This document shows positions 385 to 60,263 of a stretch of DNA of 64,000 bases, one piece after another (the stretch's first letter is position 1; each line of letters opens with the position of its first letter). Source of the stretch: Bacillota bacterium (lineage in GTDB: Bacteria > Bacillota > Dethiobacteria > DTU022); the NCBI GenBank assembly GCA_019428945.1, contig JAHYJM010000005.1, positions 1,562 through 65,561 of the forward strand, in the 5' to 3' direction. Position numbers and translations under genes: made by a program. The notes under the pieces were generated by a model. It was not told the DNA's origin. It worked only from the letters and a program-made list of their open reading frames with translations, and searched no databases.

Positions 385-1863
385 ATGTTGAAAAGCAAGG
401 AAAATATTGAGAATAGTAAGGTTAAGCTGGAGATCGAGGTAGCTGCTCCCGATGTCGACACTGCCCTGGCAAAAGCTTACAGAAAAGTTGTTAAAAAAGT
501 TAATCTGCCCGGATTCCGCAAAGGCAAGATTCCCCGCCGCATACTGGAATCGCGTTTTGGTCCGGAAATTTTACATGAGGAAGCGCTTGAGCTCCTTGTT
601 CCTTCCGCTTATGATAAAGCATTGGAAGAAGCTGATATAGATCCGATCAACCACCCTGATTTTGAACTTGTTCAGATTGAGGGAGGAAAGCCTTTAATCT
701 TTCACGCAGTTGTTGAAGTGCTTCCCCCGGTTGAAGTTGGCGAGTATAAAGGACTCAAGGCAGAGCAGGAAGAAGTCGAACTTGATGAAATGCAGATCGA
801 GCATCACTTATTCATGCTTAGAGAACAGAATGCGCGTCTGGTTCCAAGGGAAGAAGGCCCGGTAAAAGAGGGCGACATAGTAATGATAGACTTCAAAGGT
901 TATGTAGATGGTGAACCTTTTGAAGGTGGCGAAGCTGAAAACTATTCGCTTGAAATTGGTTCAAAATCATTTATTCCCGGTTTTGAAGAACAGTTAATTG
1001 GTGCTCACCCCGAAGAAGATATTGAAGTTAAGCTTAAGTTCCCAGATAATTACCGCAAAGAAGATGTCGCCGGAAAAGATGCAATCTTTAAGGTTAAAGT
1101 CAACCAGATTAAGGAGAAAGAGCTTCCTGAACTTGATGATGAATTTGTCAAAGAAGTAAGCGAGTTTGAAACCATTGAAGATATGAAGGCTGATTTAAGA
1201 GTTAAGATGCTGAAAAATGCAGAAGACCAGTCCTTATCAAAGCTGGAAGAAGAGCTGATCGAAAAAGTTGCATCCTCATCAGCGGTTGAAACTCCGAAAG
1301 TTCTTGTAGACAGACAGATTGACAGAATGCTTGGCGACCTTGAAAGTTACCTTCGGTATCAGGGCATGGGTTTGGACCAGTTCATAGAGATGTCAGGTAA
1401 AACCAGGGAAGAATTGCGCGAAGACAGAAGGGAAGAGGCAGAGCAGCGAGCCAAGGCCAACCTGGTTCTCGATGCCATTGCTAAAAAAGAAGGAATTACT
1501 GTTGAAGATAGCGAAATAGAGGCCAAAATAGCTGAAATTGCTGAAAGTTATAATGATGACCCTGAAAGGATCAGGGATATTCTTGAGAAGCAGGGCCGGA
1601 TTCCGGTCATGATGGAAGAGATTCGCATCCGCAAAGTGATTGACCTTCTTGTCGGGAACGCAGAAATTAAGAAAGTTAAGCCGAATAAACCTGAAAAGGA
1701 CAGTAAGCCAAAGAAAGCAAAGTCTGCCAAAGCGCCGGATTCGAAGGCGGAGCCGAAGGAAGCAAAAAAAGCAAAAACAACCGCTAAACCAAAAAAAACA
1801 GCGGCAGCAAAGACAGAAGATAAAGAAAAGAAACAGGAAAAAAAGGGAAATAAAGATAGTTAA
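385..1863 (+). CDS. tig: Trigger factor (ribosome-associated chaperone/PPIase) with a ~65-aa Lys/Ala-rich C-terminal extension
   Basis: N-terminus MLKSKENIENSKVKLEIEV...GFRKGKIPRRILESRFG is canonical trigger factor. The conserved order tig-clpP-clpX-lon follows. The tail reads KPKKAKSAKAPDSKAEPKEAKKAKTTAKPKK.... Confidence 0.95.
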   Translation: MLKSKENIENSKVKLEIEVAAPDVDTALAKAYRKVVKKVNLPGFRKGKIPRRILESRFGPEILHEEALELLVPSAYDKALEEADIDPINHPDFELVQIEGGKPLIFHAVVEVLPPVEVGEYKGLKAEQEEVELDEMQIEHHLFMLREQNARLVPREEGPVKEGDIVMIDFKGYVDGEPFEGGEAENYSLEIGSKSFIPGFEEQLIGAHPEEDIEVKLKFPDNYRKEDVAGKDAIFKVKVNQIKEKELPELDDEFVKEVSEFETIEDMKADLRVKMLKNAEDQSLSKLEEELIEKVASSSAVETPKVLVDRQIDRMLGDLESYLRYQGMGLDQFIEMSGKTREELREDRREEAEQRAKANLVLDAIAKKEGITVEDSEIEAKIAEIAESYNDDPERIRDILEKQGRIPVMMEEIRIRKVIDLLVGNAEIKKVKPNKPEKDSKPKKAKSAKAPDSKAEPKEAKKAKTTAKPKKTAAAKTEDKEKKQEKKGNKDS

Positions 1864-1928
1864 AATGTGATATAATATTATAAGTAAGAATGATTACTAA
1901 TAATTGATTTATGTGGGGAGGTTTCAAT

Positions 1929-2516
1929 ATGAGTTTACTGGTTCCAATGGTTGTTGAACAGACTAGCCGTGGTGAAAGGGCTTATGATATATATTCCCGC
2001 TTGCTAAAGGATAGAATTATCTTTCTAGGCAGTGCGATAGATGATAATGTGGCCAATCTGGTGGTGGCCCAGATGCTTTTTCTCGAATCTGAGGATCCGA
2101 AAAAAGATATAAATATATATATAAACTCTCCCGGCGGCTCGGTCTATGCCGGTATGGCTATCCTGGATACAATGCGCTATGTTAAGCCGTCGATTTCGAC
2201 TATATGTGTCGGTCTTGCTGCAAGTTTTGGCGCGGTTTTGCTTTCTGCCGGTGAAAAAGGTAAGCGTTTTGCCCTGCCCAATTCACGCATAATGCTGCAC
2301 CAGCCCATGGGCGGCGCCCAGGGTCAGGCAGTGGATATAGAAATACACGCACGCGAGATTCTAAAAACCCGTGAGTCACTGAACCAGATATTAGCAGATA
2401 ATACCGGCCAGCCGGTGGAAACTATCGCGCACGATACAGACCGCGACTTTTTCATGTCGGCAGATGATGCTAAAAACTATGGATTAATTGATGAGATCCT
2501 GGTTAACAGACCCTAA
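1929..2516 (+). CDS. clpP: ATP-dependent Clp protease proteolytic subunit
   Basis: [34 protein letters not shown] matches the ClpP N-terminus. I prefer the internal ATG at 1929 (RBS GGGGAGG upstream) over the ORF-track start at 1911. Confidence 0.95.
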
Positions 2517-48480: not shown

Positions 48481-49380
48481 TTATTCCAATCCGTAACCTG
48501 GGAAGAAGAGTGTCTCGCCGTTAACCTGGTAAGAATTGATCAGGTTTTGCCCTTCTTCCGACATGAGGAATTCTACGTACATCATGGCATATTCGTACTT
48601 AATGCCCTCATGTAATTCAGGATTGACAGCCATGACGCCATACTGGTTAAAAAGAACCGGATCGCCTTCCAGCGCTATAACCAGGTCAATACTGTCTTTC
48701 ATTGAAACATAAGTGCCGCGGTCGGTAAGAGTATATCCGAGACGTTCATTGGCATGGTTAATTGTATCGCCCATACCCTGGCCGATTGACTCATACCAGC
48801 TTTCGCCTGCCGGATCAATACCGGCTGCTTCCCAGAGACGCAGTTCCATCCGGTGCGTTCCAGAATCATCGCCCCGTGATACAAAGATAGCGCCGCTGTC
48901 GGCAATTAAAGACATCGCTTCTGCTGCAGTTGTTACACCACCCACGCCAGCTGGATCCTCAGCAGGGCCAACAAAGATAAAGTCATTATACATGACATCA
49001 TAACGGTCTACAAAATAACCATCCTCTACGCCCTGCAGTTCTGATCCCCGATCGTGAACAAGCAAAACGTCAGCATCTCCACTGCGGCCGGTTTCCAACG
49101 CGGCCCCGGTGCCCTGGGAAACCACCCTGACTTCGAGGCCAGTTTGTTCTGTAAAAATTGGGTTAAGAAAATCGAGCAGGCCTGAATCATAGGTGCTAGT
49201 TGTGGTAGCCAGGATAATAAAGTCATCAATTAGCTCAACTTCTTCTTCCGGTGTGGTTTCTTCTTCAACCGGTTCTTCAACCGGGGCTCCTTCTTCTGCG
49301 CATCCGGCAAAGAATAAAAGTGCTGCCATAAGCATTAAACCAAATAAAAGCTTAAACTGAATTGAACTACGGTTAAACAT
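48481..49380 (-). CDS. tupA: Tungstate-binding periplasmic lipoprotein TupA
   Basis: Lipoprotein signal LLFFAGC and the TTTS oxyanion-binding motif (ILATTTSTYDSGLLDFL). Confidence 0.8.
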   Translation of the reverse strand: MFNRSSIQFKLLFGLMLMAALLFFAGCAEEGAPVEEPVEEETTPEEEVELIDDFIILATTTSTYDSGLLDFLNPIFTEQTGLEVRVVSQGTGAALETGRSGDADVLLVHDRGSELQGVEDGYFVDRYDVMYNDFIFVGPAEDPAGVGGVTTAAEAMSLIADSGAIFVSRGDDSGTHRMELRLWEAAGIDPAGESWYESIGQGMGDTINHANERLGYTLTDRGTYVSMKDSIDLVIALEGDPVLFNQYGVMAVNPELHEGIKYEYAMMYVEFLMSEEGQNLINSYQVNGETLFFPGYGLE

Positions 49381-49440: not shown

Positions 49441-49570
49441 AGATGGTCGTGGCATACAACCACGAGAGCCTTCTTTCCGCAACGGGAGGCACAGCTGTTT
49501 CCGGCCGTACCCCAGCCTGCTATTCATGACGCTGCAAGATCGCTTTAGAATGAACAGGTCGAAGGTAAAA
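49441..49570 (-). ncRNA. Structured 5'-leader element E1 directly abutting the tupA RBS; candidate Moco/Tuco-class riboswitch (translation-control type)
   Basis: Shares the conserved blocks CCTTCTTTCCGCAACGGGAGGC, GTTTCC and GATCGAAGG with E2 and E3. It is followed on the minus strand by AAGAGGAGAG (RBS) and the tupA ATG. Confidence 0.45.
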
Positions 49571-49621
49571 CTTTTAGAAATGCTTTATTCCTTAACACTT
49601 CACCCCCCTTGTTTGGTCAAC

Positions 49622-49795
49622 AAAAAAAATCGCAGTTTCCCATGGGTAAGTGCGATTTTAATAACTTTCCTTGATCCTTCTTTCCGCAATGGGAGGCCCG
49701 GCCGTTTCCAGCTAAACCCTGTCGTCCACCTTTCGTAGCAACATGTAGTGCTTTAGATACAGTGGATCGAAGGTTATTATTTAATTGTTAGCAAG
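49622..49795 (-). ncRNA. Structured element E2 with intrinsic-terminator expression platform; candidate Moco/Tuco-class riboswitch (transcription-termination type), in tandem upstream of E1/tupA
   Basis: ~85% identical to E3 over ~150 nt. The minus-strand hairpin ATCGCA..TGCGAT (49629-49656) is followed by U8. Confidence 0.45.
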
Positions 49796-51129: not shown

Positions 51130-51885
51130 TTAATGATGCCGGCGAAGGTATTCCATGGGACAGGTTTGCCAGGAAGCCTGCTTATTGATATCATGATTCG
51201 GAACAACCAATAAAACTTTACGGTTGTTGATTAAAACGCCCTTCACTTTTTCCCCTAGTTTAATAACTGTATCATCTGAAAGTATCATGCCGGATAAATC
51301 CTCAACTGAGTCTATGGCAGTAGAATTTAGAAGAACCTTAACTGAAGTTGTTTCACCCGGTTTACCCAGTTCATACTTTCCCCTAAAACGCCCATCGCTG
51401 CCGCTTAATCGTAAACCTACCCCGGCCAGAGCTCCAATTACTCCATGGCCGGTTCCGCCATGTTCTGATAATCGTATATTTAGTGATGCAGCGAGATCAT
51501 AGGCGCTCGACTTGCTTAGGACTTCAACCTTAGCTCTACGGCCAAATCCAACTAAAGCCTCTTTTTGTTGATCGGAGAGAATATCAGCATTTGCCAGACA
51601 AAATCCCGGATCAGATCCGTTAGCTCTATATTGAACGAGAAGTTTGGGAAATAACTTTAAGAGCATTTCGGACCTTTTGGTATCCACTTCTGTCGTCACT
51701 GACATGGCGCTGTTATGAGAAGTATAAGGGATGGAAGGGTGAACGAAAAGCTGATGCCTCACCACTCCTGAAAAAGCGATCCCACTGTTAGCCTCAATTT
51801 CACTGACAATCTTTGTCAGCAGGCGCCCTGTTCCCATTTCTGTTGTATGGTTGTCCGTGTCATCTATGCCAATGATAACTTTCAT
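51130..51885 (-). CDS. Conserved hypothetical protein with N-terminal IGIDDTD motif (possibly TiaS-type kinase-domain-like), first gene after element E3
   Basis: 251 aa, no transmembrane segments. MKVIIGIDDTDNHTTEMGTGRL. The TiaS resemblance is recalled and low-confidence. Confidence 0.6.
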   Translation of the reverse strand: MKVIIGIDDTDNHTTEMGTGRLLTKIVSEIEANSGIAFSGVVRHQLFVHPSIPYTSHNSAMSVTTEVDTKRSEMLLKLFPKLLVQYRANGSDPGFCLANADILSDQQKEALVGFGRRAKVEVLSKSSAYDLAASLNIRLSEHGGTGHGVIGALAGVGLRLSGSDGRFRGKYELGKPGETTSVKVLLNSTAIDSVEDLSGMILSDDTVIKLGEKVKGVLINNRKVLLVVPNHDINKQASWQTCPMEYLRRHH

Positions 51886-52039: not shown

Positions 52040-52200
52040 AAAAAATCGCATCTTCCCGGTGAGAAATGCGATCAATTTATACTTGTGGTGATCCTTCTTT
52101 CCGCAACGGGAGGCGCGGCCGTTTCCAGCCGAACCCTGTCGTCCACCTTTCATAGCAGTATCAAGTGCCTTAGAAACAGTAGATCGAAGGTGATACATAT
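52040..52200 (-). ncRNA. Structured element E3 (aptamer-like region plus hairpin/U6 terminator) upstream of the 51885 operon; candidate Moco/Tuco-class riboswitch
   Basis: Conserved core GTGGTGATCCTTCTTTCCGCAACGGGAGGCGCGGCCGTTTCCAGCC...GATCGAAGG. The terminator ATCGCA..TGCGAT (52045-52072) is followed by U6 on the minus strand. Confidence 0.45.
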
Positions 52201-52299
52201 TTGATTGTTAACTACACTATGCATTTTATAACAAATATCTTAATTGGTCAAGAAAATTGATCAATATTACTTTGTTTTGGGTAGTTTTTTTGGGTTTGT

Positions 52300-56474: not shown

Positions 56475-57371
56475 GTGTTTTTACCTCAGGTGATTATAAT
56501 GAATAGTGAAGATCATTTACGCAAAATTATTCTTGATGCTGCTGTTGAAGGAACCGATCCTGCAGGAGGCAGTTATCTGTATCTGACTTTGCAGAGCACA
56601 GGGTTGATAGCTTCTGAAAACAATCTTAGCAATCGTGTGGTGGAATTAGCCGCCCTTAAAGCAGATATCATTCCTGATCGTTATCAGCGCAGTATCGGCA
56701 CTGTTGGAACAAAGGGTCAGATTAAGCTGCTCGAAGCTAAAGTCGGTGTGATAGGTGCCGGCGGTCTGGGTGGTTTTGCGCTTGAACTTTTATCCCGAAT
56801 GGGCGTAGGTCGGCTTGTAGTTGTTGATGGAGACAACTTCGCTGACAGCAACCTTAACCGTCAACTTTTTGGGCTTGAAACGAATCTGGGTAAATCCAAG
56901 GTGCGGGCCGCGGCTGAACGCATAATTGAAGTCAACAGTTCTGTCGAATTGGAAACACACCACTGCCTGGGCACAAGTTCGAACCTGCCTGAAATATTCA
57001 GGGGATGCGATCTTGTTCTTGATTGTCTTGACAACCTTCCATCGCGTTTTGACCTGGAGAAAGTATGCGGAGAGCTTGAAATCACGATGATTCACGGAGC
57101 AATTGCAGGATTTCTGGGCCAAATAGCCGTGATCAGACCGGATCAGCCTTTACTTTCGGCAATATATGGCAATATAGCTGAAAGTGGCGCAAAGAAGGGT
57201 GTAGAGACACAACTTGGCAACCCTGCAGCTACACCTGCAATGCTAGCTTCATGGCAGGCGAGCGAAGCGGTTAAATACCTGGCAGGGTTGGAAGGAGTTC
57301 TGGCTTCCAATAAATTGTTAATTATTGACATGCAAGCCGGAGAATCATACCAGGTTGAGGTAAGCCCCTGA
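56475..57371 (+). CDS. ThiF/MoeB/HesA-family E1-like adenylyltransferase with ~85-aa N-terminal extension
   Basis: Rossmann motif VGVIGAGGLGGFALELLSRMGVGRLVVVDGD. Confidence 0.75.
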   Translation: MFLPQVIIMNSEDHLRKIILDAAVEGTDPAGGSYLYLTLQSTGLIASENNLSNRVVELAALKADIIPDRYQRSIGTVGTKGQIKLLEAKVGVIGAGGLGGFALELLSRMGVGRLVVVDGDNFADSNLNRQLFGLETNLGKSKVRAAAERIIEVNSSVELETHHCLGTSSNLPEIFRGCDLVLDCLDNLPSRFDLEKVCGELEITMIHGAIAGFLGQIAVIRPDQPLLSAIYGNIAESGAKKGVETQLGNPAATPAMLASWQASEAVKYLAGLEGVLASNKLLIIDMQAGESYQVEVSP

Positions 57372-57387
57372 AAAAGATATAATGCTA

Positions 57388-57416
57388 TTGACAAGGTGCA
57401 TTGCCGTGCATATAAT
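57388..57416 (+). promoter_or_regulatory. Consensus sigma-A promoter TTGACA-17-TATAAT driving the leuS leader
   Basis: Perfect hexamers and spacing, read directly. Confidence 0.65.
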
Positions 57417-57422
57417 GTTATG

Positions 57423-57782
57423 TGTACTCGAGGTGCCATATAGATTTTGATGAAGGGAAGCAGTAAGCAGGAATGTTTTCTCAGAGAGCCGGCGCCTGGT
57501 GAAAACCGGCAGGCGGAACTGCTGAACTCGTCCCGGAGAAGCAGCGGTAAATTTTTAAAACGCTGCCGTAAACCGGCGTTAACGGTAGAAAGAGGGCAGC
57601 ATATCATGGGGCTGTGGCGCAGGGGGAGCGCGCTTCCTTGGCATGGAAGAGGCCGCGGGTTCAATTCCCGCCAGCTCCACCACATTTTGTCTGACCAATA
57701 AGGGTGGTACCGCGGGTATGAATCCGTCCCTTGACAGGGCGGATTTTTTATTTGGTGAAACATATGGAGACGGAGGTTTAAT
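57423..57782 (+). promoter_or_regulatory. T-box riboswitch leader of leuS (Leu, CUC specifier), interrupted by a tRNA gene
   Basis: The 5' part reads GAUGAAGGGAAGCAGUA (Stem-I base GA motif), ...GAACUCG (specifier-loop candidate) and AGAGAG/GGUGAAAA (distal elements). The 3' part carries the T-box sequence AATAAGGGTGGTACCGCGG (57697-57715) and the terminator ATCCGTCCCT/AGGGCGGAT+T6 (57722-57749). The RBS GGAGACGGAGG precedes the ATG. Confidence 0.65.
57608..57683 (+). tRNA. tRNA-Ala (anticodon GGC)
   Basis: Cloverleaf folded by hand. 7-bp acceptor with a G3:U70 wobble, discriminator A73, D-stem GCGC/GCGC, anticodon stem CTTCC/GGAAG, loop UUGGCAU (GGC), T-stem GCGGG/CCCGC with TTCAATT loop, and an encoded CCA. 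Confidence 0.85.
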
Positions 57783-60263
57783 ATGGTGACGAACTATAAT
57801 CCTGCCGAAATCGAAGAAAAATGGCAGCAGAAATGGGCTGAGGATGATTCCTTCCGCTCGGAAATCGACCATGATAAAACCAAGTATTATGTCCTGGAGA
57901 TGTTCCCCTATCCATCAGGGAAACTGCACATGGGCCATATGCGCGTCTATTCAATTGGTGATGTACTGGCTCGTTTTTTACGTATGCGCGGCTTCAATGT
58001 TATTCATCCAATGGGTTGGGATGCTTTTGGTCTTCCTGCAGAAAATGCAGCAATAGATCACCGGGTTAACCCGGCAATCTGGACTGAACAGAATATAGAA
58101 CATATGAAAAAACAGCAGAACCGGCTGGGAGTCAGCTATGACTGGAGTCGTGAGGTTAATACCTCTGCTCCTGATTATTATCGTTGGTCCCAGTGGTTAT
58201 TTCTTTTAATGTATAAACGCGGGCTGGCTTATAAGAAACAGGCCAGTGTTAACTGGTGTGAAACCTGTGAAACTGTGCTGGCAAATGAACAAGTGGAAAA
58301 GGGTCTTTGCTGGCGCTGTTCATCAGTAGTTGAAACACGTGATCTCGAACAATGGTTTTTACGTATAACTGAATATGCCGAACGTTTGCTTTATGATCTG
58401 GATAAGCTGGAAGATTGGCCTGAAAGGGTCAAAACTATGCAGCACAACTGGATCGGTCGCAGCGAAGGTGCTGAAATAGCATTTAAGGTGAAGGAAATAC
58501 CGGAAGAAGAGGTACGCACATTTACTACCCGGCCTGACACTCTCTTCGGGGTTACATCTATGGTTCTTGCTCCGGAACACCCGCTGGTTAAAAAATTAGT
58601 TGAGGGTACCGAAAGAGAGAAAGATGTAATGGACTTTGTCGCCAGGGTCAGAAAAGAGAGCGAAATTGAACGCACCGCAGATGAGGCGCCAAAAATCGGA
58701 CTATTTACCGGGCGCCATGTTGTTAATCCGATCAATGGTGAAGAAATCCCTGTCCTGGTTGGCAATTATGTCCTGATGGGCTATGGAACAGGTGCAGTAA
58801 TGGGTGTACCCGCTCATGATCAGCGGGATTTCGAATTCGCCAAAAAACATAAACTGCCGATAAGGATAGTTATCCAGCCTGAAGGCGAAGAACTTGATGA
58901 ACACACTATTACAGAAGCTTATACCGGTGAAGGTGTAATGGTGAACTCCGGCAGTTTTAACGGCCTTAATAATACAGAAGGCATGAAGAAAGTGACTGAG
59001 TACCTTAAAGAGAAAGGGCTCGGTGATTTCAGGGTTACTTTCCGGTTGCGGGATTGGCTGATTTCAAGGCAGCGATACTGGGGCGCTCCGATACCGATTG
59101 TCTATTGTGATAAGTGTGGAACAGTACCTGTTCCTGAAACTGATCTGCCCGTTAAACTGCCTCATGATGTGGAGCTATCAGGGAACAGGGTTCCGGGTCT
59201 TGCCCATTATGAAGAGTTTGTTAAGGCTACCTGTCCGGTTTGTGGCGAACCGGCGCGTCGTGAAACTGATACAATGGATACTTTTATATGCTCATCCTGG
59301 TACTTTTTCAGGTATGCCAGCCCACATTCACAAATTGCGCCATTTGAGAAGGATGATGTTGATTATTGGATGCCGGTTGATCAGTATATCGGGGGGATTG
59401 AACATGCAGTGCTCCATCTTCTTTATGCCCGGTTTTTCACCAAGGTTTTGTTTGATGCAGGAATGACCAGGGCAGAAGAACCTTTCAGCCGCCTGTTGGC
59501 CCAGGGAATGGTCTACAAGGATGGCGCTAAAATGTCCAAATCAAAGGGTAATGTGGTAACACCTGATGAAATTGTTGAAAGGTACGGCGCCGACACCGGA
59601 CGTCTCTTTATATTGTTTGCGGCTCCTCCCGAAAAAGATCTTGACTGGAATGACCAGGGGGTAGAAGGTTCGCATCGTTTTCTTCGCCGGGTCTGGCGTC
59701 TTGTAGTGGAATGCCGCGAGCAGTTTGCCACCGGAAAGGGCAATGCAGATCATGGTGAAAAGGAAGCTGAGCTTGAAAGAGTTTTGCATGCGACAATCAG
59801 GAAAGTTACGCACGACATTGAGAAGAGATTTAACTTTAACACAGCGATCAGCGCTATCATGGAGCTGGTCAATGCCATCTATAATTACCGTCTCAGCGTT
59901 GAAGAGGTTAAACAAAACAATAGTCTGTTAAAAGAGACGCTCGTAAAAACAATATTACTGCTGGCGCCTTTTGCACCTCACCTTGCTGAAGGGGCATGGA
60001 ATCTGCTTGGATACAAAGAGAGTGTGCACAAACAGAGCTGGCCCGAGTTCGATACAGTTAAACTGGTAGTTGATGAAGTTGAAATTGTTGTCCAGATTAA
60101 CGGTAAAGTACGCGGCAGAATGGTTGTCCCAGTCGACTTTAATGAAGATGACCTTGCCGAAGCTGCCCGTGAAAATGAGCGTATCAGTGAGCTCATCGAA
60201 GGCAGAGAGGTAGTTAAAATCATAGCAGTTAAAGGACGACTGGTTAACATAGTAGTCCGTTAG
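57783..60263 (+). CDS. leuS: Leucyl-tRNA synthetase
   Basis: 826 aa. The HIGH motif appears as HMGH and the KMSKS motif is present. The CP1 editing domain is present. Confidence 0.95.
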   Translation: MVTNYNPAEIEEKWQQKWAEDDSFRSEIDHDKTKYYVLEMFPYPSGKLHMGHMRVYSIGDVLARFLRMRGFNVIHPMGWDAFGLPAENAAIDHRVNPAIWTEQNIEHMKKQQNRLGVSYDWSREVNTSAPDYYRWSQWLFLLMYKRGLAYKKQASVNWCETCETVLANEQVEKGLCWRCSSVVETRDLEQWFLRITEYAERLLYDLDKLEDWPERVKTMQHNWIGRSEGAEIAFKVKEIPEEEVRTFTTRPDTLFGVTSMVLAPEHPLVKKLVEGTEREKDVMDFVARVRKESEIERTADEAPKIGLFTGRHVVNPINGEEIPVLVGNYVLMGYGTGAVMGVPAHDQRDFEFAKKHKLPIRIVIQPEGEELDEHTITEAYTGEGVMVNSGSFNGLNNTEGMKKVTEYLKEKGLGDFRVTFRLRDWLISRQRYWGAPIPIVYCDKCGTVPVPETDLPVKLPHDVELSGNRVPGLAHYEEFVKATCPVCGEPARRETDTMDTFICSSWYFFRYASPHSQIAPFEKDDVDYWMPVDQYIGGIEHAVLHLLYARFFTKVLFDAGMTRAEEPFSRLLAQGMVYKDGAKMSKSKGNVVTPDEIVERYGADTGRLFILFAAPPEKDLDWNDQGVEGSHRFLRRVWRLVVECREQFATGKGNADHGEKEAELERVLHATIRKVTHDIEKRFNFNTAISAIMELVNAIYNYRLSVEEVKQNNSLLKETLVKTILLLAPFAPHLAEGAWNLLGYKESVHKQSWPEFDTVKLVVDEVEIVVQINGKVRGRMVVPVDFNEDDLAEAARENERISELIEGREVVKIIAVKGRLVNIVVR

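Follow-up and report, generated by a model that had tools for sequence, protein, structure and literature searches.

Class I T-box riboswitches, such as the leaders of Bacillus subtilis tyrS, glyQS and leuS (Rfam family RF00230), consist of Stem I, Stem II, Stem IIA/B, an RRRxG-Stem III-AA element, a UGGN bulge and a competing antiterminator and terminator, followed by an aminoacyl-tRNA synthetase gene that matches the specifier. All of these features are shared by the leader of leuS, the gene for leucine–tRNA ligase, in a 64,000-nucleotide (nt) stretch of a Bacillota bacterium genome (contig JAHYJM010000005.1), henceforth called the window. The canonical Stem III loop is a few nt long, whereas here it accommodates a complete tRNA gene, for alanine and not for leucine, by which the leader would also be a tRNA precursor. 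It is the apical loop of Stem III that takes up the tRNA; the T-box is otherwise intact, from Stem I, Stem II, Stem IIA/B and Stem III to the T-box bulge and the terminator.

Transcription units that combine tRNAs with an mRNA are known: in the Escherichia coli thrU-tyrU-glyT-thrT-tufB operon, tRNAs and mRNA depend on one promoter, and the tRNAs are freed by RNase P and 3′ processing. The tRNAs of the tufB operon, however, merely precede the open reading frame (ORF), whereas the tRNA described here resides inside a riboswitch, upstream of the attenuator, and its output would be separate from that of the mRNA. Complete tRNAs embedded in a larger structured non-coding RNA also occur in GOLLD RNA (PMC12990946), but GOLLD is large, of unknown function, often phage-associated and not a cis-regulatory leader, and the identity of its embedded tRNA varies. 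Amongst T-boxes, lineage-specific insertions have been reported, e.g., stem Sa of staphylococcal glyS and additions to Stem III or helix A2 of translational T-boxes (PMC9177973, PMC4574755, PMC7583486). These resemble the present case in that an extra structured domain in the discriminator half is conserved in a lineage and tolerated by the core mechanism; they are, however, simple hairpins without a gene product, whereas the insertion in the leuS leader has the hallmarks of a decoding tRNA with invariant identity elements and crosses phylum borders.

A tRNA gene nested in a riboswitch is apparently an undescribed arrangement. We found no description of a T-box with a nested tRNA in the full-text literature searched; an earlier mention (e.g., in Vitreschak et al. 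2008, RNA 14:717) is possible. We propose, with a probability of roughly 0.7, that the leader is a transcription-attenuating Leu T-box of leuS whose Stem III loop houses a functional tRNA-Ala(GGC) gene; the tRNA would be co-transcribed with the leader and released by processing. This proposal draws on the anatomy of the leader and its conservation, on covariation in Stem III and in the tRNA, on the absence of a separate promoter and on the identity of the downstream gene.

A tRNA gene in the loop of Stem III

The leader matches the RF00230 model from end to end (model positions 1–219) at 57441–57734 on the forward strand, on which all leader features given below are located, with 111.8 bits against a gathering score of 93. 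The sole anomaly in the cmscan alignment is an insertion of 98 nt where about 15 nt are expected; this insertion is the tRNA, at the Stem III loop, flanked in the Rfam alignment by Stem I on the upstream side and by the antiterminator on the downstream side. In the Rfam alignment of a related leader from a metagenome (L166), the tRNA is likewise an insertion inside the Stem III hairpin; at this position, two leuS leaders that lack a tRNA (L123 and L178) form a short Stem III of the ordinary kind.

The discriminator domain of T-boxes has the signature 5′-RRRxG-Stem III-AA-3′ (PMC7583486, PMC7778990). In the window, it reads AAGAG, GGCAG…CUGACC and AA, and the loop of its Stem III measures about 86–90 nt, owing to the tRNA. 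The 5′ purine string AAGAG (57590–57594), read from the sequence, is followed by the 5′ strand of Stem III, GGCAGCA (57595–57601), which RNAduplex pairs with the 3′ strand UGUCUGACC (57688–57696), with bulges; the conserved AA (57697–57698) comes directly after. Between Stem III and the tRNA (57608–57682), the predicted flank duplex leaves 6 nt unpaired on the 5′ side (57602–57607, with U at position −1) and a short trailer on the 3′ side (57683–57687).

That the sequences flanking the tRNA on the 5′ and 3′ sides form a helix is borne out by compensatory changes across the related loci (see the next section), e.g., GACAAA/UUUGUC and GAUAGGU/ACCUAUC, and, in the clade of the window, GGCAG/CUG(A)CC versus GGCAA/UUG(A)CC. 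Duplexes between flanks of the same locus have a mean predicted energy of −12.4 kcal/mol versus −8.3 kcal/mol for cross-locus combinations (RNAduplex; p about 1e-12). In every locus, the helix starts directly after the purine string (GAGUG, AAGCG, GAGCG, AAGAG or similar) and ends directly before the AA, 5 nt upstream of GGGUGG. Covariation was scored on an alignment of 88 distinct loci anchored on the RRRxG and AA motifs, with pairing ignored; columns A24 and A25 of this alignment, which hold the AA, are invariant. The seven base-proximal pairs of Stem III are paired in 75.6% of cases versus 55.7% in column shuffles (none of 500 reached the observed value) and 25–43% when the partner strand was slid; double-sided changes number 187 against 73 expected, and the covariation score is 0.600 versus 0.253. 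The helix varies in length from 4 to 21 predicted pairs (median 10), and the unpaired stretches between helix and tRNA range from 0 to 23 nt on the 5′ side and from 0 to 20 nt on the 3′ side, with medians of 5 and 4 nt, respectively.

The other parts of the leader conform to the family. A sigma-70-type promoter, TTGACA-17-TATAAT, with 12 out of 12 consensus matches, is present at 57388–57416. According to the Rfam alignment, Stem I (57447–57539) includes a kink-turn (GAUGA), the specifier loop, an AGAGA bulge and the distal loop GGUGAAA; the specifier codon is CUC for leucine (57527–57529). The specifier loop reads GAA-CUC-G (57524–57530), with a purine after the codon as is required for T-box membership, and, because of this loop, the leader is expected to sense tRNA-Leu. 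Stem II and the Stem IIA/B region (57541–57585), with the F-box CGUUA at 57577–57581, are both aligned by Rfam. The antiterminator (57701–57731) is made up of helices A1 (AGGG/CCCU) and A2 (GCGG/CCGU) around the T-box bulge UGGUACC (57705–57711; UGGU at 57705–57708), as read from the Rfam alignment and the sequence. The U in the last position of UGGU fits A73 of bacterial tRNA-Leu. Folding predicts an intrinsic terminator (57720–57749) with a 10-pair stem (hairpin at 57720–57746) followed by the U run TTTTATTT; it overlaps the 3′ strands of A1 and A2, and antiterminator and terminator are thus mutually exclusive. The leuS ORF follows at 57783–60263 and specifies 826 amino acids, 100% identical to leucine–tRNA ligases from metagenome-assembled genomes (MAGs) of Bacillota/Dethiobacteria. 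Each testable hallmark of RF00230 is therefore found in this leader: the model match, the specifier, Stem II and IIA/B, the discriminator, UGGN, the terminator and the downstream gene. Minimum-free-energy folding of the whole leader recovered the terminator but gave no reliable global structure, and was not used.

Most of this anatomy had been proposed in a sequence-only reading of the window, which named a consensus promoter at 57388–57416, Stem I hallmarks with a CUC-containing loop, a tRNA-Ala(GGC) with G3:U70 and an encoded CCA, a gap of 14 nt between tRNA and T-box sequence, and an intrinsic terminator ahead of leuS. The present data uphold these elements, and also the placement of the tRNA inside one complete Leu T-box; the tRNA itself is accepted by both ARAGORN and the Rfam tRNA model, and neither of the outcomes that the reading had named as a refutation was obtained. 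A correction concerns the end of the tRNA, which is at 57682 instead of 57683, and the 14 nt between its CCA and AAUAAGGGUGGUACCGCGG are positions 57683–57696. The alternative in which the tRNA replaces the Stem II/III region as a spacer has to be abandoned, since Stem II, Stem IIA/B with CGUUA, and Stem III with its RRRxG and AA borders are all there.

Upstream of the leader lie obg, nadD, an HD-domain gene, rsfS and a ThiF-family gene, and a radical-SAM/PDZ gene is found downstream of leuS. The tRNA-Ala(GGC) is the single tRNA that ARAGORN detects in the 64-kb window. The leader promoter is preceded, at a distance of 33 nt, by a second promoter-like site, TTGAGG-17-TATAAT (10/12 matches; 57355–57383, forward strand), which overlaps the ThiF-family ORF at its end; the pair could be tandem promoters. 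On the reverse strand, the window also harbours three molybdenum (Moco)/tungsten-cofactor riboswitches (RF01055) at 49454–49576, 49661–49784 and 52078–52201, with 55.9, 61.2 and 65.5 bits. A tandem pair of these aptamers, with a spacing of about 85 nt, precedes the ORF at 48481–49380 (reverse strand), and the third precedes the ORF at 51130–51885 (reverse strand).

Conservation of the arrangement and of the tRNA

One genome per species (GTDB) was scanned for a generic tRNA T-arm, GGTTCRANNCC, 15–45 nt before GGGTGGTACCGCG, a pattern by which tRNA identity, anticodon and downstream gene are left unconstrained. The counts below rest on the matches listed, which come from at least 120 species genomes. 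In 114 of these genomes, the match belongs to a tRNA-Ala(GGC). ARAGORN calls a same-strand tRNA over the match in 110 loci, all 110 being tRNA-Ala(GGC), and in four more loci (L029, L036, L101 and L105) this tRNA is truncated where the sequence block ends. Five of the other six matches are chance T-arm-like sequences without a tRNA (L021, L056 and L118–L120); the sixth, L054, is the 3′ end of an unassigned tRNA, truncated at the locus edge, and no leuS is present downstream. A second tRNA identity nested in a T-box was not established among the matches listed, i.e., T-boxes with exact GGGTGGTACCGCG.

The downstream gene is leuS in all tRNA-bearing loci with enough sequence, at least 112 in number, with 44–88% identity to the window LeuS (tblastn). 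Most of the related leaders show the specifier context GAA-CUC-R, and a few have near-variants (inspection by eye and a partial regular expression). The Rfam gathering score for T-boxes is reached across the tRNA in 9 out of 18 diverse loci, and in L166. The composite recurs in at least 114 species genomes other than that of the window, which takes it far beyond chance and answers, in the affirmative, the question in the sequence-only reading of whether other leuS leaders contain the same insertion. The nesting is a conserved arrangement, not an accident. In a metagenomic sample of 80 LeuS loci, a T-box was absent from 77 and present in three, one of which has the tRNA, numbers that are too small for a frequency.

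Going by the submitters' titles, the carriers are over a hundred species from about seven phyla. Within Bacillota, they include Syntrophomonadaceae/Dethiobacteria, Peptococcaceae, Desulfofundulus, Pelotomaculum, Thermacetogeniaceae, Symbiobacterium, Thermaerobacter, Desulfitispora and one “Bacilli” MAG; within Chloroflexota, Anaerolineae, Chloroflexia, Thermomicrobiales, Ktedonobacter, Limnocylindria and Caldilineae; the others are Armatimonadota, Candidatus Sysuimicrobiota (Fervidifonticultor), Coprothermobacterota, Caldisericota and Actinomycetota. Cultured organisms among the carriers include Thermosyntropha lipolytica DSM 11003, Desulfofundulus thermosubterraneus DSM 16057, Desulfitispora alkaliphila DSM 22410 and Thermaerobacter marianensis. 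The distribution suggests an old insertion in Bacillati, or transfer of leuS together with its leader. Outside these Bacillati phyla, the arrangement was seen in MAGs labelled Proteobacteria, Methylocystaceae, Bacteroidales or Desulfarculaceae (L007, L019, L024, L055 and L106); their LeuS proteins resemble the Chloroflexota or Bacillota type, and mis-binning or mislabelling is possible.

The Rfam tRNA model scores the nested tRNA-Ala(GGC) of the window (anticodon at 57640–57642) at 66.9 bits against a gathering score of 29; with the related loci included, scores run from 59 to 72 bits. All 21 stem pairs are canonical in each of the 83 distinct sequences, with several pair types at most positions and numerous compensatory changes. 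The G3:U70 pair occurs in 83 of 83 distinct orthologues and A73 in all 111 loci, and the tRNA of the window has both; the anticodon is GGC in each of the 110 listed loci with an ARAGORN call. CCA is encoded in 81 of 111 loci, and U occupies position −1 in 71 of 111. G3:U70 and A73 are identity elements for AlaRS. To judge from these comparisons, the embedded element is evolving as a working tRNA, under selection as a tRNA.

The same data bear on the view that the insertion is a tRNA-shaped structural domain or a decaying pseudogene, never used in translation. One could read decay into the 30 of 111 copies that lack an encoded CCA, but many bacterial tRNA genes normally lack it. Insertions of unknown function are, moreover, on record in every T-box domain (PMC7583486). 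Nevertheless, a GGC anticodon in 110 of 110 called loci, retrieved by a search that left it unconstrained, an invariant G3:U70 and A73, wholly canonical stems and the Rfam tRNA scores make a pseudogene or mere scaffold very improbable.

We have even less confidence in the embedded tRNA-Ala as a ligand in cis, its ACCA pairing with the UGGU bulge, or in the leader as an alanine-sensing T-box. In favour of such pairing, the distance from ACCA to GGGUGG, the T-box sequence downstream of it, is only 19 nt, and that to the UGGU bulge 22 nt; tRNA-Ala and tRNA-Leu share A73, by which UGGU suits both. The specifier is, however, CUC for leucine and not GCC, and the regulated gene is leuS; the CCA in the nascent RNA is not a free 3′ end, and the discriminator sterically excludes 3′ extensions (PMC7583486). 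In 12 of 111 loci, not even ACC follows the acceptor stem. On these grounds, we rejected alanine sensing and a cis-acting ACCA.

Transcription of the nested tRNA

A promoter-like site with at least 10 of 12 consensus matches is located upstream of Stem I in 66 of 99 related loci, versus 2% of shuffles. In the 67 nt before the tRNA, by contrast, no such site was found in any of the 99 loci, and at the relaxed threshold of at least 9 of 12 matches there are two (2/99), about the shuffle rate. These scans fit a transcription unit of the tufB type, in which tRNA and mRNA share a promoter and none intervenes. Having no promoter of its own (0/99 loci), the tRNA would have to come from the leader transcript, and the only terminator at its disposal is that of the T-box; it thus lacks what an independent tRNA transcription unit needs. 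The tRNA and the leader are therefore likely to be co-transcribed as one RNA, as far as promoter sequences can tell.

The opposite view, which the sequence-only reading had also aired, is that of an independent tRNA gene with an internal promoter of its own, sitting between the two leader halves and not made from the leader transcript. B. subtilis trnSL-Ala1 offers a precedent: this single-copy tRNA-Ala gene stands alone outside the rRNA-linked clusters, as the nested gene does, but forms a monocistronic unit that has a promoter (8-nt leader) and a terminator to itself, and B. subtilis does not have the nesting (PMC1874595). The only candidate in the window is a weak site, TTAACG-17-TATCAT (9/12 matches), at 57579–57607. 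Its −10 element ends at position −1 of the tRNA, which would put the transcription start within the tRNA. The closest relatives do not conserve this site, nor do the 99 loci offer an equivalent. Furthermore, CGUUA, RRRxG and the 5′ strand of Stem III, all of them conserved parts of the T-box, fill the flank in which a promoter would have to fit. We rejected the site, and an independent gene is highly unlikely. That the model organism B. subtilis has the monocistronic trnSL-Ala1 is probably the reason why the nesting went unnoticed.

Eleven loci (L024, L025, L040, L047, L050, L059, L062, L067, L075, L087 and L106), mostly labelled Chloroflexota (Anaerolineae), have an extra same-strand tRNA-Ala(CGC), about 20–50 nt upstream of Stem I and 250–430 nt upstream of the nested tRNA. 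In L025, the sole one of these loci that was read, a promoter-like site precedes the tRNA-Ala(CGC), and the T-box with tRNA-Ala(GGC) and leuS follow. This second tRNA upstream of Stem I supports the idea that tRNA-Ala genes ride on the leader promoter.

Some variation in the layout of the locus was observed. In some lineages, a gene intervenes between the T-box/tRNA and leuS (L014, L035, L058, L064, L066, L070, L071, L076, L087, L102; L027, L072, L104). It belongs to the class IV aminotransferases (ilvE-like; Pfam Aminotran_4 confirmed for L014) in Sysuimicrobiota, Armatimonadota and some Anaerolineae, and is an AMP-binding ligase of about 555 amino acids (Pfam confirmed for L027) in Desulfofundulus and Pelotomaculum. 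Stem I is drastically shortened in L049 and L091 (Coprothermobacterota), L095 (Caldisericota), L076 and L103, where the specifier loop closes after a few pairs, without the AGAGA bulge or the distal platform, and the nested tRNA and the discriminator are kept; it resembles the short Stem I of actinobacterial ileS T-boxes. In a Coriobacteriia MAG (L111), a promoter-like site is present about 120 nt upstream of the tRNA; the tRNA-Ala(GGC) follows it within about 65 nt, and the 3′ half of a T-box and leuS come next; no Stem I or specifier is recognisable, and the locus may be a decayed T-box with a surviving tRNA. In the bioreactor metagenome contig of L166, a divergent c-di-GMP-I riboswitch (cyclic diguanylate; 1860–1946, reverse strand; 84.4 bits) lies just upstream of the leuS T-box/tRNA leader.

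Processing and the role of the insertion

From the features described, we infer that tRNA and leader are co-transcribed, that the transcript is processed, that the tRNA serves translation and that the T-box decision is unimpaired, in the following course of events. RNA polymerase would start at the promoter at 57388–57416, and Stem I would capture tRNA-Leu via the CUC specifier. Stem II and Stem IIA/B would then be transcribed, and after them the two strands of Stem III, first 5′ and then 3′, with the 75-nt tRNA between them; the tRNA would fold autonomously, and Stem III would close below it, assembling the RRRxG-Stem III-AA discriminator as in an ordinary T-box. After another 40–60 nt or so, the choice between antiterminator and terminator would depend on whether the 3′ end of tRNA-Leu is charged. 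As the tRNA is situated upstream of the terminator, every transcript, terminated or read-through, would carry it, and RNase P and 3′ processing are predicted to free tRNA-Ala(GGC) from both kinds alike, with Stem III keeping the two leader halves joined after excision. The median 5-nt unpaired leader and the U at −1 would leave room for RNase P. The tRNA gene would thereby borrow the constitutively fired promoter and the terminator of the leader, while leuS would stay under the control of leucine.

Several observations weigh against this proposal. In 12 of 110 loci, predicted Stem III comes within 1 nt of the 5′ end of the tRNA, where its pairing might hinder RNase P, and in loci that encode CCA, an endonucleolytic cut before the terminator hairpin would be required to mature the 3′ end of a tRNA from a terminated leader. 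Half of the 18 diverse loci stay below the Rfam T-box gathering score, and the scan took only T-boxes with exact GGGUGGUACCGCG, i.e., those for A73-type ligands. Moreover, the role of a passenger alone leaves the exclusive pairing of tRNA-Ala(GGC) with leuS and its persistence across phyla unexplained.

This last point invites the idea, which we regard as doubtful, that the nested tRNA, far from being a passenger, does its work as an integral part of the riboswitch. It may be conceived in three versions. The insert could be a timer of about 100 nt, which widens the interval for capture of tRNA-Leu before the discriminator is made. Alternatively, it could recruit RNase P and 3′ nucleases so that each leader is split: the Stem I fragment, a possible sequesterer of tRNA-Leu, would be cleared fast, and the leuS mRNA would obtain a hairpin-protected, processed 5′ end. 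Thirdly, cleavage could compete with the read-through decision, as the sequence-only reading had it.

There is support for such roles in other leaders. In B. subtilis, the Stem III loop of glyQS is a pause site for RNA polymerase, and the thrS mRNA becomes more stable when its leader is cleaved. Ligand binding by T-boxes is a two-step, kinetically controlled process (PMC6197855; PMC7583486), and cleavage of the Staphylococcus aureus met leader by RNase III sets mRNA stability and yields a processed mRNA 5′ end, much like the one envisaged here (PMC7913692). The cleavages of the thrS and met leaders are, however, made by RNase III, J or Y at ordinary helices, whereas the signals predicted here are for RNase P and RNase Z or an exonuclease. 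Within the present data, the strict partnership of tRNA-Ala(GGC) and leuS in about seven phyla, despite the existence of leuS T-boxes without a tRNA, and the insertion site, always the Stem III loop, would agree with an integral function.

Yet no sequence feature demands such a role. The constraint typical for a decoder (invariant anticodon, G3:U70 and A73) is what a passenger gene predicts and would be needless in a structural timer. The lengths of leader (0–23 nt), trailer (0–20 nt) and Stem III (4–21 predicted pairs) vary widely. The exclusivity can also be explained by a single ancient insertion and vertical inheritance. As to the third version, in which excision by RNase P/Z severs Stem I from the antiterminator and couples maturation of tRNA-Ala to read-through, we do not favour it: the decision point is only 40–60 nt past the tRNA, probably reached ahead of RNase P action, and Stem III would hold the two halves together after excision, which makes a gating role of excision the less likely course. 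In a combined form, the nested tRNA would be a selected module of the leuS riboswitch, the leader being cut into a two-piece RNA joined by Stem III, and/or the insert setting the kinetic window; we put this forward tentatively, as a minority possibility. If true, it would tie leuS control to the tRNA-processing capacity of the cell, and it would explain why the tRNA-Ala(GGC)/leuS pairing is retained across about seven phyla.

Returning to the nested and co-transcribed tRNA gene that we consider probable, a practical consequence concerns annotation, as pipelines that mask tRNAs or limit insert length would miss or split T-boxes of this kind. The leader also amounts to a natural experiment on the carrying capacity of the Stem III loop and, after processing, on the function of a T-box as a nicked, two-piece RNA, and it may help to probe the kinetic window in which tRNA is sensed co-transcriptionally. 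For the T-box family, it means that one of its insertions would be a complete, conserved and decoding tRNA gene, placed in the very domain that senses aminoacylation. For the bacteria that carry it, a riboswitch leader would double as a tRNA precursor, one promoter providing both constitutive tRNA-Ala and leucine-regulated LeuRS.

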